Source: Psammoneis japonica
Taxonomy: Eukaryota
Assembly: GCA_008632985.1 (NCBI GenBank)
Contig: QPGO01000004.1
Coordinates: forward strand, 1-64,000
Length of the DNA: 64,000 nucleotides
Reading direction: 5' to 3'
The position numbers were made by a program, and so were the translations under genes. Below are positions 1-59,323 of the stretch, one piece after another. Position 1 is the first letter of the stretch. Every line of letters starts with the position of its first letter. A model generated the notes under the pieces. It made no database searches. It was given only the letters and a program-made list of their open reading frames with translations, and had not been told where the DNA came from.

Positions 1-2285
1 AGTCCGGCAGTCGGTCTGGTTGTCTGTCTGAATTTGAAAGTGTGTCCCTTGGATTTTGGAATGGCACATGGGTTGTTTGGCATGAGTGAACTCATTTTCT
101 GTTGGCGATCATTGACATTTTAATTGCCGCACAATTTTGCTGCGGAGCTCGCACGTAGAAGTCTACAGGCCCAATGTCACACGGATTCCCACCTGCGTCT
201 GGAACGCATCTGGAGACTTCCCCCAATGCGATCCCCAATGCATCATAAAATGCAGTGCAGCTGTTTCTCCCACACAATTTTTTTGTTGCCAAGCGGCTGT
301 CGACAATGGCCCCAACAAGTCAGAACCAGCCACAACAGAGAAAAGGGTTGCATGCATGGCACTGGTTCCAGATCTGTTAGAAAGAAAGACAGAGCAACTG
401 CTCAGAAAGCAAAAAAAGATGCAAGGTCAACAGCAGAACCCAAAACAAAAGGAAAAAAATGATGAGCCACCTCTGAATGATGCCGCCAACATGCATGTCA
501 TTGACGCTGTTCAAAAAGACACTGCACAAAAACATCCAGAGGACAAAGAAAGTCATCACCAGTGCAAAACAACTGATTTGAACAAGTCTGCAATGTTGGG
601 AAAGCGCGCTGATTGTGAGTCCAAAATGCTTCAAAACCTTGCACAAATCTTTGGAGCAGATTCTGCCGGCTTGACAACAAGGTCAATTTGTTCAATTGCT
701 TGCCAACTGACAGCATGCTTTTTCTAACTTCTCATGTGTTGATGGCATCAAAGCAAGCGCCATTGGGTGCAGTGCATTTGTGGATGAAGGCGGTGCTGTG
801 GTCGTGAAAGGAAGAAAAAACACTTGCGTCACAACGGAGAACATGAAAAGTCAAAACAACAGGAATGGTTTGCACTTGCCAAACAACACACTGTTCCAAG
901 GGAGACATTCTTGAACATCATTGGAGGCATCACAACAGCAACTGGGAATGCTGGATTGGTGGACAAAAGGGGTGCTGCAGCCGGGAAAGGTCACCAGATT
1001 TGGAAGCAGCAGCAACAAGATTTGCCCGGATGTTGAATTTTCGAGGAGCAGCAACATGAAGTGTGCAAGGCTTGGAGACAAAGCCACTGTTCAGAAGAAA
1101 ATGAAGCTGCAAACAAATTCACAAAGAACCAACAGAGCCAGAAGCCCACTGCAGAACAAAAGAGAAAGGCAGAAGAAAAATGTCAGTGACAAAGGATGAC
1201 AACAAGGTAAAAAGAGACTGGTTTGCATTGCCAACGCACCAATGAAGAGTCACAAGTCATTGGCATGCCAGCATTTGGCTTGCCGCCAGCAAAAAAAAAG
1301 GACTTTTGGTTTAAAAAAAATGGGTGGGGGGCCCTGCTGCAATGCTCTGCCCACTGAGACATGACAAACCCTCAGATGATGGCAATTTTGCTTTGCCCAG
1401 CTGTGCACACTGAGTTTGCTGCCTGAAGAGCCAGGGGTGTGTGTGTGTGTGGGGGGGGGGGGGGTGACCGGCTTGCCATGGGCGCATGGTGAGCTCAGAT
1501 TCACGAGGATGCCATGAGCCAAGACTGTGCATGGCCTCTTGCACGTGGCAGCACAGCATTGCCAACACACACCTGGGAAGCACAGCCACAGGAGGGCATG
1601 GCTCCATGTCTCAGACAATCTAGAAGGATGCTAAGAGAGCACCCGTGAAAAGCACTCTAACCTGTTGTCTGGCCCACAACAGCAGTGTGATTCCACACGA
1701 TGACATCTCTCGCACACAGCGCGTGATGGTGTGATTCACACGATCCATGATGCAAGCGCATGATCGATTGGCACAATCCAAAATGCAAACAAACAGGAAT
1801 TTGGCAAGATTCCCTGTTCACATGATTCCATTTCTCTGCACATGAACCAGCTCACAATTGACACATCTGCATTTTTCGTCGCCCGCTGCATGCGCACAGG
1901 GGGCACAGCAAGTCTCAATCCAGGGGGTCGCAAGTTGCTTGGTTGCTCAACTTTTTTGCCAAAGCTGAGACTTTCTTGTCCCACAGCCAGGGCATGGGCC
2001 AAGTCATTGGTGTGGCACACAGGAGGAGATGGGACCATGTGGTTGCTGTTCTCTGCATTGCCACATCTTGGGGGGGGGGGACAATTTGCGCAGGGTTGTT
2101 CAGCCAGAATCTTCCAACATTCAAGGTTTCCATTGATGGTGACAAAATCCCACATCTCATTTTCTTTGCTGAAAGCATCGGAAGGTTTGGACTCGATTCA
2201 TCGTTGTGCGTTTGCGTTGCTTGTGACGAGACTGCCATTGAAATTCTTTTTCGAGGGTTGGCACATTGGCACGCGTTGAGTGTGT
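1..2285. mobile_element. Degenerate repeat/TE relic block (family not identifiable)
   Basis: TpA nearly absent, CpG low, CA/TG rich; only spurious Cys/His/Gln-rich ORFs; same composition as identified TE relics elsewhere in the window. Confidence 0.55.
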
Positions 2286-2703
2286 GCTGCTATGGGTGGG
2301 GACGCCGTAGAAATCACGTAGATGCTATTTTTTTAGAAAAATCAACCTCTTTGCCCAGATGGACCATGGCGGTCGTCGACGTCGTGACAAAAAAAAAGTG
2401 TCATCATCACGATTCATAAGACTCAACGTGCGGTCACAACGCGCAAGGCCGGGCTTCCAACTCCCGCCACACAGCGCCACAGCCTTCGCTAAGCGACAAC
2501 CAAATCAACCTACAATTTCTCACCAAATGGCTTTCGTACCCTCAGGATCATTATAAAAAGTTGTACTTTTGTTACCATAGTGTCCGCCGTCATCGAATTA
2601 GGCGGGGTGGTCAGAAGTACAACTTTTGACGGCAATCTCATCGAGTATTTTTGAAGTTTCCACGATCACCCACATGTCGCGTCCGAGTTTGGTGTAGGAG
2701 ACA

Positions 2704-4720: not shown

Positions 4721-5078
4721 TGGCGGTCACTTCATCGCCATCAATGTCGACGAATACAAGGCCAATGAAAAAGTTACCCCCCATTCTAAGCACCTCTGAA
4801 CACCCTCTATCGACTAAGGTAACTCTCGTTTCGATCCAAGGAAATTCGTTTCTACGTGATTTCTACGGCGTCCCCTCCCATAGCTGCCGACTGTTGCGAC
4901 TGATTATTGATGGATGGACAGACTGACTTAGAGAAACATGGTGCGTGACGTGATAATACCAAGGAAACCGTAGAACCTACGCCAGAGCAAAAACGCATGC
5001 AAAGTTCTGCATGAAAGATGCAGATGGGCTTCGCACTGTCAATGATGCTCTCGCTGCTTGTTTCACGAATAACGCACA

Positions 5079-7489: not shown

Positions 7490-8368
7490 CTATGGCCACG
7501 TGACAATGACGGTGATATTGTCAAAACTTCCACGAATCAACGCCTCCTTACAAAGTTTGTGAGCAATCTCGTCTTTATCCATACCCTGAGCTTTCCAATT
7601 CCACACCAAATTGACAGCTTCTTGATCCTGCAAGACATCCCACAGTCCATCACAGGCAATAATCAAAAAGTCACTCTCGTCCTCTTCCCAGTCCCTCTGG
7701 GTATACGACACGAACGGCTTGGCAATGACAAATTTCTTCAATCCGTAGTCCCCCAAACTCCTCGCCACAGCCAGCACTCCCAAGACTCGTCCCTTCAATA
7801 CAAAACCACCCGCTTGCTCAATTCGTTTGACTTCATCCGTGTCGTCGGCACGGTGATCGTGTGTCAAGCGTTTGGCTCGGCCCGCACAACTCCCATACGT
7901 TATACGTGCGTCTCCGGCATTGGCGGAGTGAATGGCGGTGCACACAAATCTGGACTGCTCCTCATTCAGCTCGTATTCTAACAAACACAAGGCGACTGTT
8001 GCACCCGACGTTTCTATTCCAGCCTTGACATGACTGCAAATGTCGGTCAGCAAAAAACTGCGTTCGAGTTTTTCCTTCATGCTACTGTCATCATCATCGA
8101 CAGACAATTCTTGCTTGACGACGTGATGAAGGGTCGCGTGCAGGTAATCACAAATTTCACGTCCCCCGTGGCCGTCGTAAACTGCCAAGAGACTGTACTT
8201 TTTCGTAATGCCATTCTTATCCACAATCGTTACCAAGTCGGGTTGAATCATGTAGGCGTCCTCCATGGTGGAACGTTTGGTTGGATTCATTTCTTCTGCA
8301 ACCCCATACATCAACTCGGGCAGTGACGGCATTGACATTACTTCTGAAGACGTCGGAGATGACGACAT
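7490..8368 (-). CDS. Protein phosphatase 2C (PPM family)
   Basis: Motifs RSTMEDA, VYDGHGG, SGAT, ANAGDAR, DHRA, GVLAVARSLGD, IIACDGLWD, GSFDNITV; first in-frame ATG at 8368. Confidence 0.95.
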   Translation of the reverse strand: MSSSPTSSEVMSMPSLPELMYGVAEEMNPTKRSTMEDAYMIQPDLVTIVDKNGITKKYSLLAVYDGHGGREICDYLHATLHHVVKQELSVDDDDSSMKEKLERSFLLTDICSHVKAGIETSGATVALCLLEYELNEEQSRFVCTAIHSANAGDARITYGSCAGRAKRLTHDHRADDTDEVKRIEQAGGFVLKGRVLGVLAVARSLGDYGLKKFVIAKPFVSYTQRDWEEDESDFLIIACDGLWDVLQDQEAVNLVWNWKAQGMDKDEIAHKLCKEALIRGSFDNITVIVTWP

Positions 8369-8591
8369 TGATGATGACACAAGAATTATGACCGATTGAC
8401 TCAAGATGCTGATGAGGGTCGAAGGAGAGGAGATGGTATTTGTTTGGTACAGTAGAGCGACAGCAGCGGCGGTTTGTCTTTGTTGTTGTCTCTCGCTCTC
8501 TCTTCATCGTTTTTGGTGCGCTTCGAGGGTGGCGCGTCGCGGCGCGCGATTGGCGAAGATTCAAAAATTGCAACAATGACTGGGACATCTA

Positions 8592-8753
8592 TGCAGTGTC
8601 TCGCACCTTATTTTTCTGATATATAGTATTAATGAACCTATTAGATATAACGGAAGCCGTTGTAACGGGCGTCGCTGAAAGCGACCCTCGTTACCTCGGT
8701 CTTTCGCTCACAATTTTGTTATCACTGAAGTCTTTATCTCGTTAGACCTTGCA
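8592..8753 (+). repeat. 5' LTR
   Basis: Aligns without gaps to 13719-13880 with 19 substitutions. Confidence 0.97.
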
Positions 8754-8782
8754 CTGTAATTACAGTCGATTCAAAGAACTGA

Positions 8783-8998
8783 ATGGAGACTAGGAACAAT
8801 ACAAACAAATTAACTAAACGTGAGAAAAGAGAACTACGCACAAGAGCAGCAGTTTGGGCTGTTGAGCACCAGAAACAAGCACAACAACGTAAACGACACG
8901 AACAGAATTTGGCGAGCCGAGTGCATCATTTGGAGTCAAAGGTAGAGTCCCTGGAGAGGACTATTGAACAATTGTATTCCCTTTTTCATGATGAGTGA
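8783..8998 (+). CDS. Small coiled-coil ORF upstream of gag, inside the element
   Basis: 71-aa ORF with heptad-like C-terminus; overlaps the likely gag ATG (8988/8991). Confidence 0.4.
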   Translation: METRNNTNKLTKREKRELRTRAAVWAVEHQKQAQQRKRHEQNLASRVHHLESKVESLERTIEQLYSLFHDE

Positions 8999-10209
8999 AT
9001 CGTTGAAGGAGCCTTGCATTGGCCATGAAGCCAAATTTGAGCATTCTGACTTGGAGGAAGTGAAATTTGACCCAATCGCATGATGACGGTAGCACTCGTA
9101 CAAAAAAGTGTCCGCGTTTTGATGGCACTCATGGCATTGAAGCATTGTCATTCGTTGAGGATCGTTTTCGTAAAATTGCTGTGAAATTGGAGTGCACCAC
9201 TGGCGAGGAGTTGTTCGAAAATTTCGAGGAAGTGCTTGCGGATGCTGCAGAGGACAAGTGGGCGAACTTGACCAATGCAATTGACGATGCCGATAAAACT
9301 GTCGAGCGTTTTGATCAGGAAATCAATCGTTTTTACTTGTCTTATTGTGACAATGAAGCGCGTGATGCGATGATTGAACATTTGCCAACTTTGAAAAAAC
9401 CATTCAAATCTGAAGTGCAGGCGCATGCAGATCGCATGGAAACCTTGATTCGGTGCTCCAACAAACTTCCAGGAAACACTCCTCAAGTCAACGAAGCTCA
9501 GAAGAAAAAGATGATGTTCGACAGCTTTCCTCGTCCGTGGCGTGAGATGTGTGCTCGAGCAGGACGAGCGACAGCAAACGACACTCTCGCTGAGATCATC
9601 AGTTGCATGAACAACGAGAAATCTTTTGCTGATGAGAGCAGCAACAAGAAGCAGGACAAGAAGAGGAAAAGCAACAGTGCTTCGTCTCAAGCTTCAAGAC
9701 GCTCTCGTGGCAACAGTGGTGGAATGGATCCAGAATCTAGATGCCCGGTGCATGCGAATCACGACCACAAGTGGAAGGATTGCATTTTGAATCCAGAAAG
9801 CCAAAACTGTCGACCGAGGTCCGACCGTGGCGGTCGTAGCGGAGGTTGTGGTGGAGGCCGAGGAAACTGCCAAGGTGGAGGACCCCAAGGTCAAGGCGGT
9901 CGTGGCAACTTCCAAGGTCGAGGACGTGGCAATTGTGGCAATCAAGGAGGACATGGAGGCCGAGGTTACGGCGGTTGCAATGACTCCCAGAATTCTCAAG
10001 GGAATGGATCCCACCACCAAAATCAAAACGGCACCCAAGCCAACGGTGACACCCAAGGCTGTGGAAATCCGGCTGGAGCAGCTCCTCCTGGTGGTTGGCA
10101 AATGGAGTCGCACCATTTTGATCAAGGAGGGCCTCGTGAGATGCGAGGTGGAAATGGATGCGATCAGAACGGTCGCACCCATCAAGGCCAACGAAGTTGG
10201 CGTAATTGA
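8991..10209 (+). pseudogene. gag: gag (frameshift near 9065)
   Basis: CPVHxxxxHxWxxC zinc-knuckle-like motif, RGG-rich tail, position upstream of the protease. Confidence 0.8.
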
Positions 10210-13200
10210 CAAGGGACGGAAGTGCCCGAGTCAGAGCGTGTCGCTCAATCTTTTTATGTTTTGCGTGATCGTGAAGAAAACATGTGTTTTAATGTTGATG
10301 ACAATGTGGGAGACCTGATGGAATCTTGCGCTGTGAATGAAGAAAAATTGGGCGGCGTTTTGGAGTGCGCTGTGCCAACCCCCAAAACTGCGACTCCCAA
10401 ACCATTGAATGTGGTGCCAACGACGTTGATGGTGGCGCGTGCCATTCAAAATCAAGAGAGCAAGCGAGTGTCACGAGTGCCATTGGATTCAGGAGGTGCT
10501 GACACTCTTGTTCATTCTCGAGTTTTGCCGAAGGGAGCGAATCCAACCATGAACGATGAAGGACGGTTGAGCTTTCAGACGGTGGCCGGACGACATGAAT
10601 CCTCCCGATGCGTCATTATGAAGGACTTGACATTGCCAGAATTTGACAAGTCAAAACAAGTCAACAGCATTGCGGCTCAAGTTTTTGATGCCCCATGCAA
10701 GTGTGATTTAATTTTGGGACAAGACTTTTTGTCGAAAGCCGGAATCGTGCTTGATTTTCGATTTGGAATGATAAGTGGTTGGAAACATCAATCCCAATGA
10801 AGCAATCCAATCATTGGAACTCAGTTCAGAATTGGTTGGATGCACTGGAAGACGACGGAGAGGACGAAGACGATGAGGAAGCCTTCGGACAATCTTTTAT
10901 GATGGACGCCAAATGCGAGAAAGTGTCATCCGCGAAAGTGGCGCAAGCTCAAACTCACTTAACTCAAGAACAATGTGACAAGCTACAGGCTGTGCTTGAA
11001 AAGCATGAAACCCTCTTTGATGGAATGCTTGGCAAACATCCGCATGAGACTGTTCACTTGGAAGTTGATCCCAACGCTGTTCCCTTCCATTCCAAGGCTC
11101 ACGAAGCATCCAAGAGGGATGAAGCCGTTTTTAAGAAAGAACTGCAACATCTGTGTAATGTTGGCGCACTGGAACCAGTGGGACCAACTGAATGGGCAGC
11201 CGGAACTTTTGTAACTCCCAAAAAGGATGGACGAGTTCGATGGGCATCCGATTTTCGAGAGTTGAACAAGGTGCTCAAACAAAAGGTCTATCCTCTGCCG
11301 ATCATTCAAGACGTCACTCACCGACGCTCGGGATACAAGCACTTGACCAAGTTGGACCTCACCATGTTTTATTGTCATGTCGAGCTTGACGAAGAATCCA
11401 AGGATTTGTGTGCTGTTGTCACTCCGTTTGGAAAATTTCGACATTGTCGATTGGCCATGGGTTTGAAAACCTCTCCCGACATTGCTCAAGCCATCATTGA
11501 AAAAGTGACTAGAAGAGAACAATCTGAAAATTAACCCACTCAAGTGCGAATGGTGTGTCCAAGAGACGGATTTTTTAGGCCATTGGCTCACGCCTGCAGG
11601 AGTCCGACCGTGGAAGAAGAAAGTGGAAGCGGTGCTACGAATGCAACCACCTAAAACTGTGACGCAACTACGATCGTTTATCGGTGCGGTAACTTATTGT
11701 CGCAACATGTGGCCTCGTCGCTCACACGTGCTCGCTCCACTCACGAAGTTGACAGGCAAGAGCAAGTTGGAATGGACCCCTGAATGTCAACGAGCCTTTG
11801 AAGATATGAAAACCTTGATGCTGGACGACACCCTTTGGGTCTACCCGAATCATAACAAGCCATTCCACATTTGTGCTGACTCTTCGGACTATCAGATGGG
11901 AGCCGCAATTATGCAAGACGGGAAACCAGTGGCTTGCTGGTCCCGGAAACTCAGCGCAGCACAACAGAACTACTCTACGATTGAAAAAGAATTGTTGGCG
12001 GTGGTAATGTGCTTCAAAGAATTTCGAAGCATGTCATTTGGAGCTGACTGCACTGTTTTTACGGATCATAAAAAATCTCACCTTTCGCACGCTCAATTCT
12101 CAACGAGTTCTTAGGTGGCGACTCTTCTTGGAAGATTTTGCCCCAACTTTCGAATACGTTGATGGCAAAGATAATCTCTTGGCGGATTGTTTTTCAAGAT
12201 TGCTGCGTATGGACCCTCCTACGGAAGGGAAGTGTGCTCCTAACAAGGGCAAGCTGATTGATTTTAAGACGATCGACCCTGCTGTGCCACCGCATGAAGA
12301 AGAACTGGACGACCAAAACAGTGTGTCTCATTTTTCCTATCGTCGTGAAGAACCATCTCCATTTTATTCTTCTGTCGTGGACGACCCCGAATTGTGTGAA
12401 TCATTTTTGAACTATCCTTCTCTCGAGGAAATGCAAAACCCTGCAACTGTGCAACGAATTCAAGAATGCCAATTCGTCGACGTGGAGCTGAACAACATGC
12501 GACAACAACATCCAGAACGCTTCGTTGTGGAACATGTGAATCAGCGTCCTGTAATTTGTTGTCGTGCTTGACCGAATGATCCTCCGACTGCGTGGAAAAT
12601 TTGTGTTCCAACGGCGTTGCTGCATGACATCATACGATGGCATCGTGGGATTTTGGGACATGCAGGAGTGCACCGAATGCATTCCACTGTTGGCACACAT
12701 TTCTGTCATCCTGCCCTTCGTCAATCCTGTGAAAGATTTCATTGTGCTGATTGTCAACGTTTGAAAACTTTAGGCCCTGGACATGGGGACCCACCTGAAC
12801 GACAAGCGCCTTCATTGCCATGGACGGAAGTTGCGGTTGACCTCATCGGTCCCTGGAAAATTGAAATTCAAAACCATGAAATCGAATTCAACGCTTTGAC
12901 TTGCATTGATGCCGTTTCGAATGTGACTGAACTCATTCGCATCGACAACAAAACCTCGTCTCACATTGCTCAACAATTTGAAAATTGTTGGTTGTCTCGT
13001 CATCCTCGTCCCAGCCGGTGCATCCATGACAATGGTGGAGAATTCATTGGAGAGGACTTTCAATTGTTGTTGCAACGAGCAGGAGTGGAAGACGCTCCGA
13101 CTGCGTCGCGAAATCCACAAGCCAATGCGGCATGCGAGCGCATGCATCAAACTGTTGGAAATGTCTTACGCACTTTGCTTCATGTTTGTCCTCCACAGAA

Positions 13201-13606
13201 TGTTGAGCAGGCCAATCAACTGGTGGACAATGCATTGGCAACCGCCATGCATGCAATGCGATGTGCGGTTTCTCGTGCTCTCAAGATTTCACCCGGTGCC
13301 ATGGTTTTTCAACGTGACATGATTCTTGACTTGCCAGTCCCAGCCGATCTTGCCACCATTCAAGAACACCGACAAGCGATCATCAATGCGAATCTCCGTC
13401 GAGCCAACGCTGAACGCCGATCCTGCGATTTTCAAGTTGGCGGACAAGTTCCACTCAAGGCTGTCGACCCAACCAAGCTCGAGCCACGAGCTCACGGTCC
13501 ATGTCCTGTCATTCAAGCACACGCCAACGGTGCACTTGCGGTCCAACGTGCACCTCATGTAACAGAACGATTGAACACACGTCGCGTCGTGCCGCATCAC
13601 ACCTGA
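10210..13606 (+). pseudogene. pol: pol: aspartic protease, RT, RNase H, integrase (frameshifts, a stop, internal deletion)
   Basis: LDSG and DLILGQDFL (PR); PKKDGRVR..DFRELNK, VYPLP, TPFGKF (RT); [23 protein letters not shown] (RH); HHCC, VDLIGP, DNGGEF, NPQAN..ER (IN). Confidence 0.95.
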
Positions 13607-13718
13607 GGTTGAGGGTTTTCTCCCCAACATTTGGGTTTCCCTTCCATCCTCATCCATTGGAATTTAAATTTTTTGAGTCCCGCATGATTCTCGACACTCG
13701 AATCATGGAAGGGAAGAG

Positions 13719-13880
13719 TGCAGTGTCTCGCACCTCATTTTTCTGATGTGCAGTGTTGACGAACCTGTTGGATGTGACGGAAGCCGTTGCAACGGGCTTC
13801 GCTGAAAGCGACCCTCGTCACCTCGGTCTTTCACTCACAAATTTGTTGTCACTGAAGTCTTTGTCTCGTCAGACCTTGCA
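13719..13880 (+). repeat. 3' LTR (contains no TpA)
   Basis: Preceded by the PPT, followed by the TSD. Confidence 0.97.
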
Positions 13881-14899
13881 ATCTAGAGCAGAGGGCCACG
13901 TGCCTTTCTACATTCGTCTTTTCCACATTGAAATCACGTGGGGCCCCATGCTTGCAGAAGTGGCGGCATTTTGGAAAAATGCAAGACTGAAACGCATTTT
14001 GGAGTTGTCGGACGAACCACATTGGTGTGGTGTGATGTGTCCGTCATCATCACATTCACGAGAAATGTGCAAACAATGTGTTCCCTCAGCATGCAAAACC
14101 TTTGCGGTGATGACGGCATGCCACAGTGGAAAACCCACAGGCTCAGATGTTCAACCTGAGCCTGTGGAAAACCAACTGCAGTGCAGGACGCACTTGATTT
14201 TCTGGAGATGTGTGGGGGGGGGGTCTGACCCTGCTGAGCATGTTCCTGCTCAGCTTGTCCCAGCCTTGTTTGTGCAATCTTGCAAACACACAAATTGTGG
14301 ACAAAAGAGACATTGGTGCCTTCACAGCAAGCTCTCAAGCAGTGGAGTTTTGCCATTTTTAAAATGTCAGGTTCCCCTCTGCCTCTGTGTGTGTGTGCTC
14401 CAAAAAGTCAGCATGGCAAGCTCTTTTGCACACCTCCATTGCCCAGTGCATGCCTTGGCTCAATTGGGTGGAATGTTTCAGAGTGGACACCATGTGTGAC
14501 TGATCCCCTGGCATTGTGAAAAACACCAGTGGCTCCATGTTTGTCAACGTTCCTGACAATGACGTGCATGTTGAGCTGCGCACTTTGATTGTGTGGAGAA
14601 ACAAGGATGATCTGCTCCACCAGCCAAAGCCACTCTGCCGCCCCCAGCAGACAACATTGACTCCTGCAGCCTGTTTGACCCAGTCCAGTAGAATGGTCCT
14701 GGGCAGCAACTCACTTGGGAGTGCACATGGCCCCTTTGGCTCTCCAACTTTGCTTCTTCGAGTGTGCAGTGGACGCCACAATGTCATGTGCAGGAGAGGG
14801 CATGGCTTTTCACTGCTCTGCTTTGACCCACCAGTGCAACTCTTCATTGGCAACTCTCCAGATTGAGCAGAACAATTGAAAAGAAAAGAGGGGGGTGGC

Positions 14900-16500
14900 C
14901 CATCGGGATCTGTGCTGCCAACAGATTGTGAGCAACATTTTGGCTTTCATGGCTGCTGCCTCACACAAGATTGATCCAGGCAATCTGGCTTCAGTCTTTG
15001 TGGGGAGTTGTCAACACACACTGTTTTCTCAACCAATTTGTGTTTGTCAAATTTGGGCAGTGAGAATTGAACGGTGCATTGACCATCAGTGGCAAAGAGC
15101 CCACCCTTGGTTTCCCAAGTCTTGGTGGCAAATTTCTCATTTCTCGTGGTGTTCTGCTGTCAAGAAGGAAGTGCAGTGGCTTGCTTTTCTCCTTTTCCAA
15201 GGAAGCATTCATGCAAGCAATGACTGCTGGACTGGTGTGGATTGTTTTTGCCCTTTTTCCAGGCTTTCTAACATCCAGTGACACACAAGACTCCTCGAGC
15301 AGTGACAGTCATTCTTCGGAATCGATCTTCTCAAATTGACACCAGTTTTCCTCACTGAAGGCATCAGAGTCATGTTCCTTGCTGTTGCACTTTGAATTCT
15401 TTGCATTGGAAGTCATCTAAAGAGAATTGTTGACCACCTGTTTGATCATGGCATTCAATTCCTCTTGCTTTTGGAGTGGCATTTTCAGCATGGTGACAAG
15501 ACCACATGTGATTGCCGCTGGTGCATTGCCATTTCAAGTTGCGTTCAGCATTCTCTCAGTGTTCATTTGCCAGTCATTCAATGACCCAGCACTGATCTGT
15601 GTTGCAAGTGTTTTTCTTGAGATGATTGCACCCCTCATCAGATTCAGACACCATTTGGCGCCAGATGGATGACCACCATTTTTGGAGCTGTTTCTGGAGC
15701 CACTTTTGGTTTTGGAACCAGGCTTGCCTTCATTGTCATCCTTGACATAAATTTGGTTGAACATGTCCTCTGCAACCTCCAGACATTCCAAAAATTCAAC
15801 CAACTTGTCAAAGGCATGATCCACAATTTCAAAACCTTGTGGGGTTGACTGACGATGCCACTTGTGAGGTGCAAGGTTGCAGACAACATCCTTGAGCCCA
15901 TCTTTGTCCAGATTCTGGTCAGATTTGCAGGGAGGATAGAACTTGAAATCTTTGTTGACCTCCTGAGCCCATGCAGCAATTTCTCGGATCTTCGTTGAGT
16001 CTGGCTTCTTGAGATCATGACACAGGTGTTGTCTCTGATTCTGAAGTGCATTCTTTGGGAAAACACAAGTGGCTTGAGAGATGATGCAGGCACTTTTTTG
16101 AAGGCTCCTTCAGCTTCTTCTTCAATGTGCATTTCCTTGTTCTCAAAAAACTTGCAGAACATCTCCCTGCAACAACACATGCATCATGCGGAACTTGCCA
16201 GCTTGCTCCATGACATTCTGTCCAATCAAATTTTTGTGCAGTTCTTCAGAAATTTGATGCACTTTGGAACTCCCTGCTTGTTGCAGCACTTGATGTTGAT
16301 TGTGCAGGTGCAGCTCTTCTTGTCTCCAGGATGAAAACACTGCTCCATCTTCATGTGCTGGCTCAGTTTGAGAGTCTTTGGCTTGGAAATCAACTCCAGC
16401 GGTTGAGGTGCAATCTTGTCCTGCTTGACTGTGGACTTGCTGTTGGCTGCATGAGATGAAAGCTTCATTTTTGTGCTTTTGCCTTCTGTGGTGTGTGTGC
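14900..16500 (-). pseudogene. Degenerate gypsy-like gag/protease remnant
   Basis: DKLVEFLECLEVAE (gag-like) followed downstream by KPLHFLLDS (protease-like); heavily decayed. Confidence 0.45.
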
Positions 16501-16714
16501 ACAATGCACTGTGCTTGAAGAACAAGCACAAATGAAAGCAGAGCAAATCACAAAAAGTAGAAAATTGTGAGATTAGATTCTGTGCTGAGATTTTGGGATT
16601 CTCTGAAGGAGCCCTCGATGGCCTGAAGCCATCATGCTGCTCCTGCAGAGCAAAGACCGTGACAACAGATTGTCCAGATGTGATCAACATTGACATTTTG
16701 TGAGTCAACATCTT

Positions 16715-16985
16715 CTGTCAATTGCACCCGCAATTTTAGACTTCAGATCAATTCTGTGTGATCAATCTGACCGTCGCATGCATCCACAATTGTTGCGCAA
16801 TTGACACGTGCAACAATGTGCAATTGCAAACATGATGTGCAATTTTGTCTGCCAATTGCATCTGCAATTTTAGACTTCCGATCAATTCTGTGTGATTGAT
16901 CCAACCATCGTGTGCATCCACAATTGTTGCATGATTGACATTTGGAACAATCTGCAATTGTGAACATGCACAATTTTGTCTGCTT
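16715..16985. repeat. Tandem duplication, ~134-bp unit x2
   Basis: caattttagacttc.gatcaattctgtgtgat at 16731 and 16865. Confidence 0.85.
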
Positions 16986-19002
16986 GGCAATGCATGCTGC
17001 ACATGTGTGTGTGTGTGTGTGTGTGATCATTGTCACATTCACAAGAAATGTGTGCACAATGCATGCCCTCAGCATGCAAAACCTTTGTGGCAATGATGAT
17101 GAGACACCACAGAACTGCTCAAACCAAAACCAGCACTCTGTGGATGGCAAGTGTGGCATTTGATTTTCTTGTGTGTTGCCTGCTGGTTGTCTTTTGCCAA
17201 GGCAGGTTGCCACAGTCCAGACTCCAATGGGGTGGGGTGACCCACAACTGTGTGGCTGATCCCAGCAACACAGAAAACACCAGCACTGCCTTGTTTGTCA
17301 AAACACATCTGCCAATGTGCTTTGTGCTTGGGGCCGCTGCTTCTTTTGGCACAGGAATGATGGTGTGATCTCTGTCAAGGCCACTCACCCAGCAGGCAAA
17401 ATGCCAGTCATCAAGCAGCATTTTTGCCTCTGATGGCTTCCAGGCCCATCCACCTTCTTTTCTTGACTGTCTTTCCACATCTGCTTCTTGGAATGCACAA
17501 ACAATGGCACTGCCACAAGAATTTGTGCTGGAGGAGAGGGAGCACATTCCCAAATGATGAGGCTTGCTGGCACACTCTTTTTTGGACACACCAGCTGGGT
17601 GGGATGATGGCCTCATTGCTGTCCATTCAATGTGGCAGAGGGATGTGGCCATGGCATTGTCCCAGAGGAGCAATGCCAACTTGTGCCAACAAGCAATCAG
17701 TTGTTGAATCACAAGAGTGACCAATGCTGCAGGCAGGAACAGGTGCCTGTGATGACTTCCTTGATGGCTGTGGGCACAAGACCAAGAGAAGAGCAAGCAG
17801 GATGACAGCATGCAGCATCAAGCCATTCGTCATTTGCCCCAAGTGAACACTGATGAAAGAAACATGTCAAGGGTGATGAGCACACACTCTTGCATTTTGG
17901 TGGGATTCCAGGCATGGTGCATGGCCAAAAAAAAACTCACATTCATGGGTGCACTTGATGGACATGAAGAGGGATGCAGGACATGATGGAAAAGCACATT
18001 GGTCTGAATGAGTCCAACACTGTAGAACTGATCATCATCTTAGTTGCTTTTGTTGCGCTGACATTTCTGCTTGTTTGGGGGTCTGTTGCAGCAGCAGGTT
18101 CAGATCTGCTCTCCATCTCCCATCACACACTTGTTGTTGCTGCTCTGCTTTCACCAGCCACCAGCATGATCGTCCTTTGGCAACCCTCCACATTGAATGG
18201 CACATCATTGAAAAGAAGAAGAGGGGGAGGGCCCATTGGAACCTCTGCTGTCAACATGATTGTGGGCACCATTTTCAGCTTTCACGGTGGCTGTTTTGTT
18301 CATGATTGATCCAGGCATTGTCAATCCACCAGCTGTGGTCTTTGGTGGGAGCGATCAGCACAGTGAGGATTTTTGTGATGGACATTAACACTTTGTTGAA
18401 GGCTCTTCCACAGCATGCCTACGGACACTGCCACTCATTGCTGTCAGTGGTGTTGGCAGCAATTGTCGGTGGTGTTTGCTGCGTGTGGGCTGTTGTACGA
18501 AAGTGCAGTCATACCTGCCTCTTTGGACATTGCATTGCTCTAGCAGAGAGGTGGAGAGATCTAGTTACATTGTAGAGTGCGGCAGTAGCTGCAAAAGAAA
18601 TGCTCGGTTCGAATGTCATTTCGCTGCTCTAGAACAATGGGAAGAAAAGCGCAAATGTGTGATTTGAAATTCAAATTTTCAACCTAAGCAATGTGAAGAT
18701 ACTTCAATGCTCTCCACGAACTTGGTGGACCCTGATGGACCTGCCATTAACTATGATCTATGGGATGCGTTGCAACTATTAAATTGCTTCAAGTAGCGTG
18801 AGCAATGTTGTGACGATGCACTTCAACTCTATGTGAACATAAAGCGCTGGACTCACTTGTGGATTCTGTAGCATTTCTTGATAAAGCACGACTCTGCTAG
18901 AGAGCCGAAAGTGTCCATATTTGCATTGAGAACGCCGTTCAGAAGAGAATTTCAAACACGTTCCTAGCACTGAATGCACCGGCTACTTTTCCTGGTAACT
19001 GA

Positions 19003-38506: not shown

Positions 38507-38699
38507 GGTGATGTGTGAAAATGCCTTTTTCTTGTGTGTGATGATGGGTGGTGGTGCGTGGCGTAAAAAAATGGCGAATGCAAGTGCCGCACCGAGAGTG
38601 CCGCAGGCAGTCCCAAGTCTCTGAGTCTTCGTCATGCGCAGACAAAAACTCACGGCGCGCCAACATTTTCATCAGGGCCAGCGTTGACTTGACGCACTG

Positions 38700-41600
38700 C
38701 CACACTCACACTGGCCATGAGCACTCCGAACAGAAAGAGCCCAGATTCTAATGTTGAAAGTGCTGGAACTTTGCACGGGGACTTCGAAGCGTCGCCATCG
38801 AACGTTCTTTTCATTTTCTTTTGAAGAACATCAACAGCAAAATTGTCAGACAGATTAAATGTGCCACAGTTTGATGCAGGGTGCCTCTGCTGCTGTTTGG
38901 TCGTCTTTTGTTCGATTTTTTCATCTCTGGGTTGCACAGTTGAGAGCCCACAAAGATGCCGCACCCTGGCCTTGGGGGTCATCAAGGAGCTGGCAGTCAA
39001 CCCAACAACAATGTGTCACCCTGTGCACCCAGTTCCACTGCTGCACAGGGTGCTGCCCCCAAGCCCCACCAGCCCCACAGGCTGCTCCACAAAAGCGCTT
39101 CCCCCCCCCCCAGCAACACAGAGCCACAGGTCATGCCCCTTTGAGCCCAGCCAGCAGCACCACAACAAGAGCTCCCAAGGGTGTCACAGCTGCACATGGC
39201 TCCAGGCTCACATGTTCCTTCAGCACTGCCACAAACACCCAGAATGAGCTTGGGCCCCTCTGCTGCACCTGTTGTCAAGACAAGAGGAGGTGACGATGTT
39301 GGGTTTTGCTGCCACAGGCTGCAAAGTGCCGCTGCTCTGTTCCACCTCATTCATTGCAAAATTTGCAGAACACATTGTGAGAGTGCAACACAGATGAACC
39401 AACACAACCCATGGGAACGGCAACACGGACTTGCCAGTGCATCCCGATGCCGCTGATTCTGGAGCAGGCAAGTTTGCAGCAGAAGTGCTGTTGCTCTCAT
39501 CCACCTTGTTCATTGCTGAAAAGCACAGAGCACATTTGTGAGAGTGCGACACATGTGAACTAACATGAACAGCAACACACACTTGCCGGTGCATCGGTGC
39601 ATCCCGGCAACGCTGATTCTGGAGCAACGTGGACACAGGTGTGCAGTGTAAAACGTCAAGCACCCAGCTCCACCCCTGCAACTCAAAGAAAACACACACA
39701 GAAAGAAAGCATGTGAGCAAGCAAAAAACATCTTAAGTGCCACAGAACACACTCACTAAGGTGGGTGTGGGAACAAGCACCACCCGCATGTGCACCACAC
39801 TGTGCAAGGCGCTGCGTGAATGACAATGTCATGTGGCAATGACTGAGTTCACCCCGCACCTCCTGTGCTGCAGATGGTTCATCAATGACATGTTTAGAGC
39901 ATGGACCAGGAACAGCAGAGAGACTTGGGAAGCCTTTGACAATGAGCCCAACAACTCAGGCAACCTCCAATGGGTTGCCTCCCCACTCTCTGCCTCCAAC
40001 TTAAGTGCTGAACACATCAAAAACCAATGAAGCTCTTTTTGTGCATGCCTTTTTTGAAGAGTGTCATGTGTGGCAAAGAACTTTTCATGTGTGTGATTCT
40101 GAGAGCTGCAGGAACAAGCACCGCCTGCAGTCTTGCCAGATCTGGACACAGAAATTGGAGAAGACGGATGTGTTGTTGGTGAGCATGTCAAAAACCAATG
40201 AGCTTCTTTTTGTGCATGCCTTGTTTGAAGAGTGTCATTTGTGGCAACTTGTCATGATTCTGGATGCAAAACTCTGACATGCGCAATTGCACCAATGCTG
40301 CAGAAAAGCAAATTTGTGACGTGAGTGCACACAACAACATGCCAGCAGCTCAGCATTCTGGACATGGCAGATTCGTGACAGCACACTCGCGATCACGAAA
40401 CTCAAGCTGCACCCAAATCAAAACCTGTCTTGACCAACCAGAAGGACAGCAGGTTTCGCCATGCATTGAGCTGCTGTCATTGGCCAATGGGGTGAAGTCT
40501 TTCACCGCCACATGGCCGGTTGTCGATTTGCAGATTTGCCACCAAACGTAGAATCCACGTGAATCACAACAGCACATGCTCTCACCTTTTGACTGGTGTG
40601 TCATTGTGAAGTGTGCAGAAAATTGCACACGTGAAAAAAAAACACTGAAAATGCCACAGACCAAGGGGCTGCAAAAATCTGAGAAGCATGAAGAGGAATT
40701 TAACATGGAGGGTGGGTCACGTGTGTGCGTGAAGTGGGCTGCACATGTGCAAACATGTGTGCGTGAGTTGAGGAGGGCCAAAGTGGAAACCAAGCTCAAA
40801 TTGATGACCATCAAAAGGAAACCAAACTGTGCATCACAAAACATGGATGTCAGCTCCAACCAAATTAAACATTGCATGCATTTGATTGAAGCTTGTGCAA
40901 GAAAAGATGATGAGACATCAGATGAAATGCAAAAAACAACTGCAATTTGTTGAGCACATTTTCAAATTTTGCTTGTCAACAATTTTGACAGCGCACATTT
41001 AAAAAATTACAAAGGAAAGTGAAAACCACTGCATTGCAACCTCTGATGCAGCTTCTGCCACCATGGCCATGTTTGGCAGCCATGCCACCTGAGACCAGAT
41101 GTGCTGCCACACAAAATGCATTGATGGGTGATGGCAAGCTCAAGGAGTTTTCTTTGAGATGCCAGCCTCTCTGTCAGTCTGGTTGCCAAGCTTTTGGTGC
41201 AGCGTGCCTTTGTGTAAGGCACAATCATGACAAGGAACTCATGCAAAGCCTTGCACCATTTGTGTTTGGCTTGGCTGTGCCCTGTCAAACACAGCAAATG
41301 ATGCATTGAAGAGCACTGGGCCAGCAGATTTTTCATGGCAGCAATGACAACCCCCAAGAACCCTTGCCAACACTGTGGTGGCTGTGGAGTCACCTGGTGA
41401 TGTGCAAGCAAAGAGGCTCTTGCCTCCATGCTGTGAGCTGCAAAGCTCTCATTGGGCAGGAAAAGAGCAGCACCAATGCTGGCTGTCCCAGGTGCATGGC
41501 AGCAAGTTGTCACCCAGTTGCTTGTGGAACCTTGGCAGCAGGTTGACCATGTCCATGCCAGCAATGTCTGGAAAATGTTTTTACTCTTCTTGCTCAGGTT

Positions 41601-42050
41601 TTGTGTGTGCTCAATGGTGCACTTCTTTGTGCTGGGCAACTGGCTCTTGTTTGCCATTGAATCAAAACATTCATGTCTTGAGTCATCAGCCAAAGTGGAA
41701 GAAATGCACCCAACAAACTTCTCTCTCATTTGCCTGCCCAAATGCCCAACAAGAACAATGGTGAGCCAGCTCTTGCTTGTCAATGGCAACAACACCCAAG
41801 TGCCAGCAAGCTGCCAGCCAAAGCAGGAGAAATTAAAGCCAAAGAATTTCACACTCATTTGCCCAGTTGCAAAACAACAATGGCTCACAACTCCTGGCTG
41901 CAAACTCATTCTTGGCAATTTTGTGCTTGTCGTTGTGCTTCACCAACCTGCTCTGTTTTGGCAATGCAAGAAATGCAGGTTGTCTTGAAAGTGATTGTCA
42001 CCAATGTGGGACATGATCTGTCCAGACAACAACGAAAACAACTGAGCGCA
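38700..42050. mobile_element. Old TE relic block, depleted in TpA and CpG
   Basis: Composition; internal ~58-bp direct repeat at 40018-40077 and 40189-40247. Confidence 0.7.
39833..40000 (+). pseudogene. Penelope-like RT fragment
   Basis: HLLCCRWFINDMFRAW...WEAFDNEPNNSGNLQW fits a decayed LLYYRRFIDDxFxxW...F..LNNFG.L.W. Confidence 0.55.
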
Positions 42051-42671
42051 GTGACGACTCTTCGCTTCTGGCCAAGTGTTTTTGAAATGTGGTGGTCTCG
42101 GATGGCTCCTACATTGCTACGTACATCATACCAGGACTACTTCAACATGTCACGACGTCGTGTTGATGGCGCGAAGAAGAGAAAAGGGACCACTAAATAC
42201 AGTCGCTGTCGCTTCTCAGTAAGGTTTAAAGGAGCTTTTGTGGGCTTGAACATTAACGGATCTGTCGTAGGGCCGCGTACTGCCGTCAAACAACTCGTTT
42301 TACAGAAAAGAAACTACCCCCAAAGAGATTCTCTTGTTGAGAAAGCCGTTCTCTGAAGGCAAGGTTACGATGATTGATGAGGTATGTCAGAAACTTGACA
42401 AGCTCAGCGAGGGCAAGACTGCGGAGCCTGATCCTTCAGAAAAAGTAAGAAGTGTCTTGCCAAGTCCGAAGCCGACAAGGTCGTAGAATCAGTCAACAAG
42501 GAATCCGACGTTGTTCAAGTTGGTCTACTGACTGGAGAGTTTCCCTACATGTTCACGATACGTGAGAAATGCGAGAGATGGTCGTTCTATATAATTGAAG
42601 TTAGATGTTAAATGAGCATGCTTCCGGCATGAACTACGTCCACAGCCTGGAGCTCTGTTTGAGAATATGAC

Positions 42672-43539: not shown

Positions 43540-46500
43540 CCTCACCCCCGCCCATCGCTGCTGCTGTAGCTCACAAGACCGAACTCTGTTTGAACTCACT
43601 TTTCCGATCGAATCGCAATCTCCATGACGATCATGATCTTTCAGACTCTGTTGCTGACAACAAAGTCTTGCTCTCAGCACTGTTGCTGTCATCCAAACAT
43701 GTGGACTCCAGCAGCCCAAGCACGATGCTGCAGGAGGAGGGGCGCCGCTGCTTCTTGTGCCCGTGCCCAGCCATGCTTTGGCACAAATCTCTCTGCCTGG
43801 GCTGTCACTGAGAACAGCTTTTTTGAAGCAAACCTGGGAAACAAGTTGGCTCTGGTGCCACTCATCTCTTCTTCACATTGCCAACAAGACATCCTCATGC
43901 CATGTCGGAAGAGGAGCAGAAGAAGAGGAGGAGAAAAGCCAGCTGGTGCCCAGGCCCAGAAATCATTGCTGGCACAGCTCGTGAACCCTTTGAGCTGCTG
44001 CTGGAAGTGCAGGCCCACCAACTCCCACTCCACCCATTGGAGATGGGGCACATCACACCCACAGCATTTGCGCTGGCAGCTCTCTTTGGACAAAATGCGT
44101 GCACACAACTCCGCCAGAGACCCAGGGGCACTCACACTTGAAGCACTGCTCAAGGCAAGTTAAAAGCCCAAGCTTCCAGCATGGTGTGTTGCCTTTGCTG
44201 ACAATGCTGTTGAGTGGAATGACGGGGCAAGACTCATGAGTGGTGTGCAAAGTGCAAGGGAAAAGTCTCCAAGAAGCAGCACATCTCCTGCTCTGCCAGT
44301 GCCGCTGCACTGCTGGGCATCAAGACAATTTCAATCACCCAGAAGGGCACCAAAAAGAAGCATCTGGCAACCTTTGCCAGGTCTTGAGGACTCCAGCCAC
44401 AATGTCCCCATGGGCCCTCCCAAGCAGACTGTTTCATCCTCCTGCAAGCAGCCTGAACCATCCAGAGCGCCTGTTGCTGCTGCGTTGGTCACTCTGACCC
44501 CCCTTCTGTCAGCCACAGGGAAGACATCTAGGATGTGCACCACATTGATGCTTCAAGCTCAATGACCACCAACCCTGCCTCAACTTGGGTTGTGGTCAAA
44601 ACAGTTCACCCCAAAGACACCAATGATTTCTTCAAGTGCTCTGACACTTTCTGCACTCAAAAATGAACCTCTGGACACTGTGCAGTCAGACAAGGTGTTG
44701 GATGATCATGTTGTGGCAACCAGAAATTCAAATTTTGAAGGTGCACGCTGTGACTCACCTCCAAGCATTGCCTGTTGTGTCTTTAATTTCTGTGATCCTA
44801 AAGTCCCTGGCTTTGTCAATTGTCAGCAGCCAAATGTTGGAAATGAGATTTGCATGTGAGGCCCACCCTGTCAACCATCAAACTTTTCCAATCTGCACAT
44901 TTTCTGGCTCTCAGCCATGCTTCAGGAGACAGTGCTGTGCTCCTGTTTTTTGCCACCTCCATGCACCCCTTGGTGTCTGGTGTGCACCACACTGCCAATG
45001 TGAAATCCCGCCCTTCTTGCACTGCTTCCAGGCATTGTGGTTGGTGCTCTCTGCAGCCATCATGGTCTGGCCATCTGTCTGTGTTGGAAACCTGGCTCCA
45101 GCAGAGCATCCATTTGCCAGTGTGTCTGCCCACACCTGCAAGCAGTCATGAAAAAGCCAGACAACTGAGCCATGTCAGATTTGGGCAGTCTTTGTGAGTG
45201 CAACAAGGTTGAAAGTCAGCAGGTCTTGCCAAATTTGTCACACATCATCCCAGGCATTCATTGAGCAAGTGACTCAAGAGGGCACTCTGATGTGGTCATC
45301 TTCTGAGTCACCTGCCTGTGACTCCATCCTCCAACAATGTGCTGCTCAACAAGTCTTCCTTTTTCAATTCTTGTGAGCATGTTGAGCAAGCACCCACTGG
45401 TCAACCAAAAGCACTTTCTTGGTGCCATCAATGAACTGCCGCCCAATTTCTTCTGGTTTGGGCAGTGACGCATGTCTTCCACAGCACATTGTGGATGCTT
45501 CAATCTTTCATGGTTCTGTGCAGCTCTTTTGCAGGAAGCACACAAGAGGCCAGCAGTCTGCAACAAGGCCGCTGTCAAAATTCTTACAGAACAGCCCCAG
45601 TCCATGCACCTGGTGCAAAATCTGCAGCAAGCACTGATTGGATTGAAGTCAGACTGCATGCCCATCATCTCATGGATGCTTGCCACTGCAAACCATCCTC
45701 TGCAGCTTCTTCTTGGCATGGCAAACAGACTCAGAATTGTGGGTGCTGGACCTGTGTTGCAGGTGCCCCAAACACTGTGCAAGGTGCAAAGATCCAACTC
45801 TCAACACAACAGCATGCCATGTGCCCAAGGCAACAAGGAGATGACACCATCTGCTCTTTTCATGATGCCTGCACAGTCAAGAATGATGGCAAGCTGGCAT
45901 TTGTGGCAAGCACAAGGCAGTCGTGAGCAGTCATTTTGACTTGCCAGCACTGGTCATCAGGAGGCACTTTGGATGTGCTGCACAACTCAAAAAGTTGCTT
46001 GCACCTGTCACAGTCACCACCAAAGGGATTTTGGCAGCTCCCCAGGTGAGTCTGCAGGTTTTCAATAAAAAAAGCCAGAACTTTGGTTCAGGACAGAAAA
46101 GCTGAGTGATGAGGCCCTTTGAGCTGACCATCTGCAACTGGGTCAAGCTGCAAGTGTTGGCCATTTCAAATCTTGACTTCTGGATTGCACACCTGCAACT
46201 CACATGAGAAGGCTTTGTCCAAGCAGCTCAGGGGCAGATGTGCTTTCATCAGTCATGCCCCAGAGGATGCACCCAAGAAGTCAAGTTTCAGTTTGGGTTT
46301 TCAGCCACAAATGATGTGAGCAAAGCAATCAGTTTTGAGAAACATGTTCTCAATCATGGTGCATCACACAAGAGTTTCTTGCCAACAGCTGACAGCAGGG
46401 TCAGGGCCAACTCTTTTACCCAACATGCTCACCAACATGAGCAAGGGCTCCAGTTTTGCAGTGCCAGCACCACCCCACCATCAAAATGAGGCACTGCTGA

Positions 46501-49080: not shown

Positions 49081-49520
49081 GATTCTAGATGCCTCAGATA
49101 AACGAGAAAAGCGTCGATGGCCGCAACCTTGCACTGCCATTGCCATCCACAAGACCAACACAATCTCATGGCGCACGACATTTCTTTCTCACGCGGGCGG
49201 CAATGCGGCCACGTGATGATCACACTGCCAAACTTACATTGTACTCATGACCCATAAATCGACGGCTATCCCACCACTTTTCGACATACCGTGCACTTGA
49301 GTATTTATGATGAGTTGAAATTTTGTACGCACAGTTACCCCACATGCGATACATCGATGGAAAGCTGAGAGTCTGCTCATTCCGTGGGGGGGGAATGGGG
49401 GGGTAAGCTCTGGCGGTTTTTTCGGAAGATGAGGTATGAGTTTTGGGTGTGATCATTGAAATATATATAATTATTAAAATAATTAATGTTGTGCCTCATT
49501 TCTTTGATTGGCGAGCAACC

Positions 49521-58974: not shown

Positions 58975-59323
58975 GGCACGGATGTTCTTCTATATCTCAC
59001 ACTGTTTCTCAACAGCTGCACTCGGTCCCACTTGAAGAAGAATGAGAGAAGCGTGTCATGAAGATGCGCTTCTGCTCAGTCGCTTTGTCGTGGCGGCTTC
59101 CTGCCTGCGCCCGCCGCCAGCGCACTCGCACGATTGCCGAATTCGCGGCTTCTGCAAACTCCAAAACGCGCATCATCCAATGCGCGAGCAAGCGCGAGAG
59201 CTTTTTGAAATTTTGCGTGTCACGCACATTTTTCACAATCAGATTCTTTGACTTCCATCTTCAATCTTTGAACGAACACAACACTCAACATCGCAAGAAC
59301 CAAAAAGCAGGATCAGATAGACC

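Follow-up and report, generated by a model that had tools for sequence, protein, structure and literature searches.

How do the two ends of a retrotransposon, which are copied from one template and hence identical at integration, come to differ at every TpA dinucleotide? This question is raised by the 64,000-nucleotide stretch of contig QPGO01000004.1 that was analysed here (the window). It carries at positions 8592-13880 an element with a pair of long terminal repeats (LTRs), and wherever the 5' LTR has a TpA the 3' LTR has TpG or CpA. We hold it probable, at roughly 0.8, that a Ty3/gypsy element, present as a polymorphic insertion in the nuclear genome of a diatom, had its TpA dinucleotides hypermutated to TpG/CpA after integration by a process acting at the DNA level. 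All results refer to this window of one contig. Dinucleotide abundances are given as rho, the ratio of observed to expected counts.

The LTR pair

The pair was located by a direct-repeat search and MAFFT alignment. It encloses a Ty3/gypsy LTR retrotransposon that is split over several reading frames. LTR ends of the form TG..CA, a short target-site duplication, a polypurine tract and the order reverse transcriptase - RNase H - integrase are all those of this class; a primer-binding site was not identified. In the Pfam scan the domains between the LTRs follow each other as RVT_1, RT_RNaseH_2, Integrase_H2C2 and rve, and full-length homologues span 9109-13600 of the element in tblastn. The parts of the element, all on the plus strand, are the following:

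8587..8591: target-site duplication ATCTA, 5' copy (read directly; the identical 5 bases follow the 3' LTR)
8592..8753: 5' LTR, 162 bp, TG..CA, 15 TpA, unmutated state (repeat search, alignment)
8592..9340: spared 5' part of the element, rho TpA 0.52, rho CpG 1.10, adjoining the 5' end of the host PP2C gene
9109..9783: gag-like region (tblastn with homologue P0384, 22% identity, E 1e-10; weak similarity to the N-terminal part of one polyprotein; no match in the Pfam scan)
10255..10794: region like the N-terminal part of homologous Pol proteins, protease-like (tblastn; the homologue P0358 has a precomputed PF00077 match, which the Pfam scan of the window's own open reading frame (ORF) did not confirm)
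10755..11534: reverse transcriptase (RVT_1, E 2e-10; tblastn)
11509..12249: RNase H, centre of a less mutated patch (RT_RNaseH_2, E 1e-27; tblastn)
12572..13606: integrase ORF, 344 codons open, no tyrosine (Integrase_H2C2 and rve matches)
13707..13718: polypurine tract GGAAGGGAAGAG just 5' of the 3' LTR (read in the alignment)
13719..13880: 3' LTR, 162 bp, 0 TpA, 15/15 sites TG or CA (repeat search, alignment)
13881..13885: target-site duplication ATCTA, 3' copy, TpA retained (read directly)

Aligning 8592-8753 with 13719-13880 gave 19 differences over 162 positions. All 15 TpA dinucleotides of the 5' LTR, distributed across LTR positions 18-152, read TG (10) or CA (5) in the 3' LTR and never CG. 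The remaining four differences are TG/CG at position 42, CG/CA at position 115 and transversions at 80 and 123. Outside TpA none of 23 A had turned to G, and only one of 41 T had turned to C, at a CpG-type site. Changed positions are thus concentrated within TpA (15/30 vs 4/132 elsewhere, Fisher p = 7e-10), and CpG was altered at 2 of about 11 sites compared to 15/15 for TpA. Transitions of the type A to G or T to C make up 15 of the 19 differences. Since both LTRs share one template, the 15 differences arose after integration. The identical target-site duplications argue against a recombinant of two insertions.

Direction of the change

Both tyrosine (Tyr) codons contain TpA, such that coding sequence can settle the polarity. 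The integrase ORF has no Tyr among its 344 residues, compared to 2.9% in the best 60 of the 120 homologues listed. For Pol as a whole we took the first 60 of the 120 listed homologues minus one with less than 1.5% Tyr, i.e. 59 proteins, and aligned them by tblastn (609 conserved columns, 486 of them identical to the element). At the 26 columns where these proteins have a consensus Tyr, the element has Tyr 8 times, His (CAY) 9 times, Cys (TGY) 7 times, and Phe and Arg once each. Hence 16 of the 18 changed columns are Tyr to His or Cys. All 8 retained codons lie between 11289 and 12155, in the reverse transcriptase/RNase H patch, while the conserved Tyr columns within the integrase read CAT. The other frequent replacements in the element are Ile to Val (12), Leu to Ser (4), Val to Ala (4), Thr to Ala (4) and Leu to Pro (3), as expected from TpA to CpA/TpG changes in or across codons.

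The LINE-like (long interspersed nuclear element-like) element of the window, which is unrelated to the gypsy element, behaves in the same way, with 0.4% Tyr vs 2.7% in 26 of 150 homologues listed, and with Tyr changed to His 3 times and to Cys twice. As outgroups for the gypsy element we used relatives from metagenomes, for which a scan returned 5 loci at 49-50% protein identity. All five have normal TpA (rho 0.70-0.79, 11-55 TpA per 500 bp). In a codon-reversion test on 37 integrase mismatches the TA type explained 14, most of any class; because the control classes have base changes in common with it, the comparison is not relied on. With Tyr columns turned into His or Cys and relatives with normal TpA, the TpA-free state is the derived one. 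For the 15 LTR sites themselves the same polarity is probable, as the polarised integrase passes into the 3' LTR without a break, and an LTR of 162 bp would very probably not be devoid of TpA in its native state.

An earlier note on this DNA had reported two 162-bp LTRs with 19 differences, 15 of them at TpA (TG 10, CA 5), together with 2 CpG transitions and 2 transversions; every one of these counts is exact. It had not recognised that the 3' LTR belongs to a TpA-poor tract (about 9341-18400) and that the window has five further blocks of this kind. Its core idea, a TpA-specific A:T to G:C change that hit genomic DNA after integration and on both strands, is supported by the LTR pair and by the Tyr codons. 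The direction it had assumed, TpA to TpG/CpA and thus the opposite of repeat-induced point mutation (RIP) of fungi, holds in view of the Tyr to His/Cys changes and the normal TpA content of the relatives. The same two observations speak against the converse that the note had named as fatal to its claim, a gain of TA by the 5' LTR.

The reverse transcriptase/RNase H part (10600-12700) is about half depleted, with TA/(TA+TG+CA) of 0.08-0.18 vs 0.00-0.05 on either side. Gene conversion, chromatin or episodic tracts are possible causes of this patchiness. In public protein sets the homologues P0063, P0359, P0321 and P0316 of both elements are nearly Tyr-free. In P0063 the 18 reference Tyr positions include 8 with Cys and 5 with His, whereas a control homologue retains 11 of 15. 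Hypermutated copies are thus predicted as proteins in public data, and the source organisms of P0063 and the others may be the same species as that of the window.

Empty site and timing

One public DNA run containing the region was available as Logan contigs (X1); no RNA run with the region was listed. Of 1059 differences between the window and X1, 40 were listed, none of them within either LTR. A 4474-base contig of depth 53.5 joins position 8591 to 13890 without the element, with two other letters at the joint, and thus shows the site empty. It follows that the insertion is polymorphic, or hemizygous, which in turn implies a fast process. The flank in the empty-site contig is TpA-poor as well, such that the neighbouring block must have been depleted beforehand. 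Between this contig and the window we found 10 differences in 1352 bases of poor flank vs 2 in 1592 bases of normal flank; the four listed for the poor flank comprise one TG/TA, one TA/TG and two of CpG type. A further X1 contig covers 16867-19000, which is TpA-free, and departs from the window there by a single substitution over 2134 bases. The contigs that reproduce the TpA-free flank have depths of 53-61. The gypsy family itself is highly repeated, with a summed contig depth of 2000-4000 vs 53.

Repeat pairs inside poor blocks carry positions at which one copy reads TG and the other CA. Such double differences occur 7 times in 165 bp and 5 times in 121 bp, and once in the 111 bp of a third pair, compared to 1 and 0 in two control pairs from normal DNA. 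Such a pattern is expected if an ancestral pyrimidine-purine (YpR) step is hit independently on one strand in one copy and on the other strand in the other copy. The most depleted block contains at 46560-46930 an inverted repeat with arms of 165 nt, 85% complementary and 41 nt apart, where 14 of the 25 differing positions are TG/CA double differences.

TpA-poor blocks across the window

The LTR pair marks the border of a larger feature, with the 5' LTR and the first 750 bp of the element outside a TpA-poor tract and the remainder inside it. The window as a whole has 1361 TpA where 3963 are expected from its base composition. About 30 kb of the 64 kb lie in blocks nearly devoid of TpA, six blocks of 0.7-9.4 kb with rho 0.03-0.18; the stretches between them have rho 0.52-0.66. 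The longest run free of TpA measures 1732 bp (46758-48490). The composite RIP index in the poor blocks is strongly negative. The blocks and the host gene next to the element are:

1..2300: TpA-poor block, rho TpA 0.08, CpG 0.41
7490..8503, minus strand: host PP2C phosphatase ORF, normal TpA (PP2C, E 3e-51); its 5' end faces the spared 5' LTR
about 9341-18400: TpA-poor tract including most of the gypsy element and the 3' LTR
13886..18400: older flanking block, TpA and CpG both lost, rho TpA 0.04, CpG 0.19; partly multi-copy (15020-17024), partly at single-copy depth
20751..30190: TpA-poor block, rho TpA 0.07-0.10, containing a LINE-like reverse-transcriptase element (minus strand, about 22831-27145)
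38561..42110: TpA-poor block, rho TpA 0.07, CpG 0.31
43568..49086: TpA-poor block with the longest TpA-free run, rho TpA 0.03, CpG 0.12
58991..59700: small TpA-poor patch between two FG-GAP genes, rho TpA 0.17, CpG 0.90 (normal); it may be a young transposon fragment or a solo LTR

All ORFs with a host-type Pfam domain lie in the normal stretches: PP2C, a protein kinase, a 1934-codon Myb-repeat ORF, eIF3c and four FG-GAP proteins. In the poor blocks 89 ORFs of at least 110 amino acids were scanned; a single one, at 24851-27391 on the minus strand, matched a Pfam family, namely reverse transcriptase, and the other 88 had no match. A tblastn search of the window, for which 10 of the Pol and LINE homologues served as queries, matched the gypsy and the LINE-like element only. 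No recognisable protein was found in the flank 13886..18400. As the process makes no stop codons and erases TAA and TAG, it leaves many long spurious ORFs on both strands. In the poor blocks TGA is the sole remaining stop, and many overlapping non-genic ORFs of 100-850 codons are present on both strands.

Counts per kb in poor blocks and normal stretches show how the lost dinucleotides were converted:

TA: 5.1 in poor blocks vs 35.7 in normal stretches
CG: 29.6 vs 59.3
TG: 106.5 vs 76.6 (+29.9)
CA: 93.1 vs 68.9 (+24.2)
all four YpR steps: 234.3 vs 240.6

The losses of TA and CG balance the gains of TG and CA, from which we conclude that two processes feed TG and CA, the loss of TpA and ordinary CpG decay, and these can be told apart. 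The interior of the gypsy element retains a rho CpG of 0.92 at a rho TpA of 0.18. In the flank from 13992 onwards both dinucleotides are lost, the drop of CpG taking place within about 110 bp of the 3' end of the element, and older blocks have rho CpG of 0.12-0.58. Taken together with the LTR pair (15/15 TpA vs 2 of about 11 CpG), the values for the gypsy interior suggest that TpA loss per site is roughly an order of magnitude faster than CpG decay.

Some features of the normal and poor stretches are recorded for completeness. At least four FG-GAP/beta-propeller repeat genes lie in the window (5073-6974 and 53604-63458), partly in tandem, with segments 65-83% similar and normal TpA in all. On the minus strand 32250-38054 is open throughout as one frame of 1934 codons, which encodes at least six Myb DNA-binding repeats and has several direct repeats within it. 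The plus strand of 22901-30190 has 43.5% G and 14% C (GC skew about +0.5), and the sense strand of the LINE-like element is very C-rich. A second, strand-specific mutation process as the cause of the G over C skew at 22.9-30.2 kb was considered and rejected: the homologues have the same odd composition, with few Glu, Gly, Lys and Val, and the skew looks like a family trait.

Targeting and sequence context

The earlier note had taken the process to be repeat-targeted. This is not shown by the data. Of two identical LTRs only one was hit, the 5' LTR keeping 15/15 TpA and the 3' LTR none. The flank parts 13890-15019 and 17025-18400 are TpA-free, yet have single-copy depth in X1 at 80% likeness. 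Host tandem paralogues of 65-83% identity are untouched. A process that selects DNA by position or chromatin domain would suit these observations better. The element also has its spared end towards the 5' end of the PP2C gene, and on the other side its mutated end meets the old depleted block.

The TpA dinucleotides that survive in poor blocks differ in their flanks from those in normal stretches (chi-square p = 1e-17; R, purine; Y, pyrimidine):

RTAY: 7 in poor blocks vs 348 in normal stretches
mixed flanks: 80 vs 628
YTAR: 64 vs 191
TTAA (within YTAR): 27 vs 42

A flank effect beyond the dinucleotide is nevertheless tentative, because strand choice in the LTR does not clearly follow it (see below) and Tyr codons became His as often as Cys. 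Processivity, judged by same-strand runs, gave no signal, with 8 runs among 16 changed Tyr vs about 9 expected (hand count).

Possible mechanisms

Any mechanism has to account for the demonstrated dinucleotide specificity, polarity, strand symmetry, post-integration timing and confinement to non-genic blocks. We propose the following course of events. The element would have inserted with the host PP2C gene on one side and an old, degraded block on the other. A process on genomic DNA would then have turned 5'-TpA-3' into TpG or CpA, i.e. A:T to G:C at the A of either strand, in most of the element and the whole 3' LTR, and would have spared the 5' LTR and the first 750 bp beside the host gene. 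The same process would have cleared about 30 kb of transposon-derived or unrecognisable DNA of TpA while leaving host genes untouched. It may be directed to a silenced or methylated chromatin domain instead of to repeats as such. As a putative genome defence it would kill proteins by missense change, with all Tyr lost, and would make no stop codons. Chemically, a deaminase requiring a 5' T could turn adenine in DNA into hypoxanthine. Among the candidates this DNA adenine deaminase is the most likely, at slightly less than even odds. TadA and ADAT2 deaminate A34 of tRNA, which follows the invariant U33.

Two alternatives accept the process and replace its chemistry; we consider both improbable and about equally so. 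In one, T:G mismatches in methylated DNA trigger error-prone patch repair by a Pol eta-like polymerase with its WA motif. TpA loss does coincide with CpG-depleted, presumably methylated blocks, and TA is the hottest Pol eta WA site. However, A following A is not hit, neither in the LTR (0/23 non-TpA A changed) nor in the poor blocks, where rho ApA is not lowered. Moreover TpA loss is near saturation where CpG is hardly lost, such that many TpA errors would have to follow from every one of the rare deaminations. In the other alternative a modified adenine is written at TpA in silenced DNA and miscodes or deaminates easily, like 5-methylcytosine at CpG. The palindromic TpA resembles targets of maintenance methylases, and the two-strand symmetry together with the confinement to domains would suit an epigenetic mark. 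The N6-methyladenine known from eukaryotes occurs at ApT and is not known from TpA, though, and there is no depletion of ApT here (rho 0.78-0.96 vs 0.82-0.99).

Editing of the element's RNA from A to I by an ADAR-type enzyme before reverse transcription is very improbable. ADAR favours a 5' U (bioRxiv 10.64898/2026.01.13.699255, main text). Some changes are common to many family copies, and part of the mutational load may be inherited via retrotransposed mutated copies. Against this stand the LTRs, which stem from one template and differ at 15 sites over positions 18-152; as the source of these differences the ADAR route is excluded. Both strands are hit about equally (His 9/Cys 7, TG 10/CA 5), the tract continues beyond the element into flank which lacks TpA in the empty-site contig too, and TAG is relatively spared whereas ADAR prefers a 3' G.

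An artefact of assembly or base calling, by which modified transposon bases are systematically miscalled as TG or CA, has similarly little chance of being correct. In its favour are the many small gaps relative to X1 contigs (18 in 1352 bases), as in a possible long-read assembly, and the reading of both CpG and TpA as TG/CA. The X1 k-mer contigs nonetheless reproduce the TpA-free flank at depth 53-61 with the single substitution in 2134 bases mentioned above. Other public proteins of the same clade show the Tyr to Cys/His pattern (8 Cys and 5 His at 18 positions in P0063), and the changes are heterogeneous between copies and between both LTRs. A RIP-like C to T change at CpA/TpG of the 5' LTR, which would make TA derived and the TpA-free 3' LTR ancestral, is hardly credible: polarity is indeed not readable from the LTR pair alone, and the 5' LTR is TpA-rich (15 in 162 bp), but a TpA-free coding sequence with His or Cys at 16/26 conserved Tyr columns and no Tyr in its integrase cannot be ancestral, the relatives have normal TpA, host genes have rho TpA 0.52-0.66 vs 0.03-0.10 in poor blocks, and the ORFs remain open where RIP creates stop codons.

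Several points weigh against post-integration hypermutation of TpA as we have described it. The polarity of the 15 LTR sites is taken from neighbouring sequence instead of a family LTR consensus. X1 could derive from the very sample behind the window, and no platform is recorded for it, such that its support is not proven to be independent. TG/CA double differences may stem from ancestral CpG as well as from TpA. When this copy is compared to other copies of the family, 12 of 40 listed rows are CpG-type differences, i.e. a second process is mixed in. The flank preference is not mirrored in the strand choice of the LTR, where the 3' neighbour was followed at 5 of 8 informative sites (hand count). 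Finally, homology to the process in Bigelowiella natans, discussed below, would be by signature only.

Relation to known systems

The host is a diatom. The nearest relatives of the eIF3c fragment at 51567-53285 are diatom proteins (Nitzschia sp. 69%, Epithemia 66%, Eucampia 65%, Thalassiosira 65%), and the named Pol relatives are from Cylindrotheca and Nitzschia.

Detailed knowledge of mutational genome defence has hitherto come from fungi (RIP, C to T). Like the process described here, RIP ruins mobile DNA in place and in blocks by dinucleotide-specific transitions and leaves a compositional scar beside intact genes. Unlike it, RIP converts C to T at CpA and thereby makes TpA, which is destroyed here. 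It needs duplication and hits both copies, whereas here one identical LTR was spared and DNA at single depth was affected; and it makes stop codons, whereas the process here makes none and removes TAA and TAG. Deamination of 5-methylcytosine at CpG likewise yields TpG/CpA, in the same blocks, and is seen alongside; it acts on C, is clearly slower here and cannot explain the loss of TpA. ADAR and APOBEC editing of retroelements resembles our case as a defensive, deaminase-driven source of clustered transitions, but acts on RNA or single-stranded complementary DNA before integration and on one strand. Here the changes came after integration, on both strands, and extend to non-element flank.

The closest counterpart is described in the main text of a preprint on the alga B. 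natans (Mettrop et al., bioRxiv 10.64898/2026.01.13.699255). In its mutation-accumulation lines 230 of 231 mutations in two integrated-virus regions were A to G or T to C, all 230 at TpA (210/211 in the region of a nucleocytoplasmic large DNA virus (NCLDV), 20/20 in a virophage region), at a rate of about 6e-7 per site per generation. The genome has 124 clusters that are TpA-poor and CpA+TpG-rich, mostly unannotated and enriched in reverse transcriptase domains, and an ADAT2/TadA-like deaminase was proposed. The statement of the earlier note that no system with this signature had been described is thus out of date, as the preprint reports exactly this signature. Judged from that text, both cases have in common that only A to G or T to C changes occur, only at TpA and on both strands, that they are limited to foreign or mobile DNA in multi-kb clusters while host sequence mutates at the normal rate, and that the long-term result is TpA-poor, CpA+TpG-rich clusters with reverse transcriptase domains. 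They differ in the host (a chlorarachniophyte, Rhizaria, there vs a diatom, a stramenopile, here), in the targets (integrated NCLDV and virophage DNA vs LTR and LINE-like retrotransposons) and in extent (rho TpA 0.45 in the NCLDV region vs a near-saturated 0.03-0.10). As further differences, CpG decay coincides with TpA loss here, and the rate was measured there in mutation-accumulation lines while timing here comes from the LTR pair and the empty-site allele. From this comparison the two are probably the same kind of process.

None of the words diatom, LTR, retrotransposon and trinucleotide appears in the main text of the preprint, and no report of TpA hypermutation in diatoms was found in the literature, subscription journals not being covered. 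What is new here is accordingly a second, distant lineage and a new class of target for a process first reported in 2026, a narrower novelty than had been supposed before. A common, ancient DNA adenine-deaminase defence of diatoms and chlorarachniophytes that is directed to chromatin domains and erases TpA from any DNA in silenced ones, fast enough to saturate a still-polymorphic insertion, is a reading that we consider somewhat less likely than not.

Significance

With a diatom added to B. natans, the TpA process is no peculiarity of a single alga and could be common among marine protists. The LTR pair and the empty-site allele add evidence on timing, together with a hint that position or chromatin is targeted rather than repetition. 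The question is now placed in a group that includes genetically tractable species, in which deaminase candidates can be knocked out. For annotation, the process explains why much of the 'dark' intergenic DNA of diatoms has failed to be annotated, and it carries a warning: ORFs that are free of TpA and Tyr, and long because TAA and TAG were removed, are not genes.

Should the shared ancient defence be real, crippled elements would stay open and partly mobile, as no stop codons are made, and a single spared LTR beside an active gene would show targeting by position and not by homology. It would then be a second mutational genome defence beside RIP, mechanistically independent of it, found across the SAR (stramenopiles, alveolates and Rhizaria) supergroup and open to genetics in transformable diatoms.

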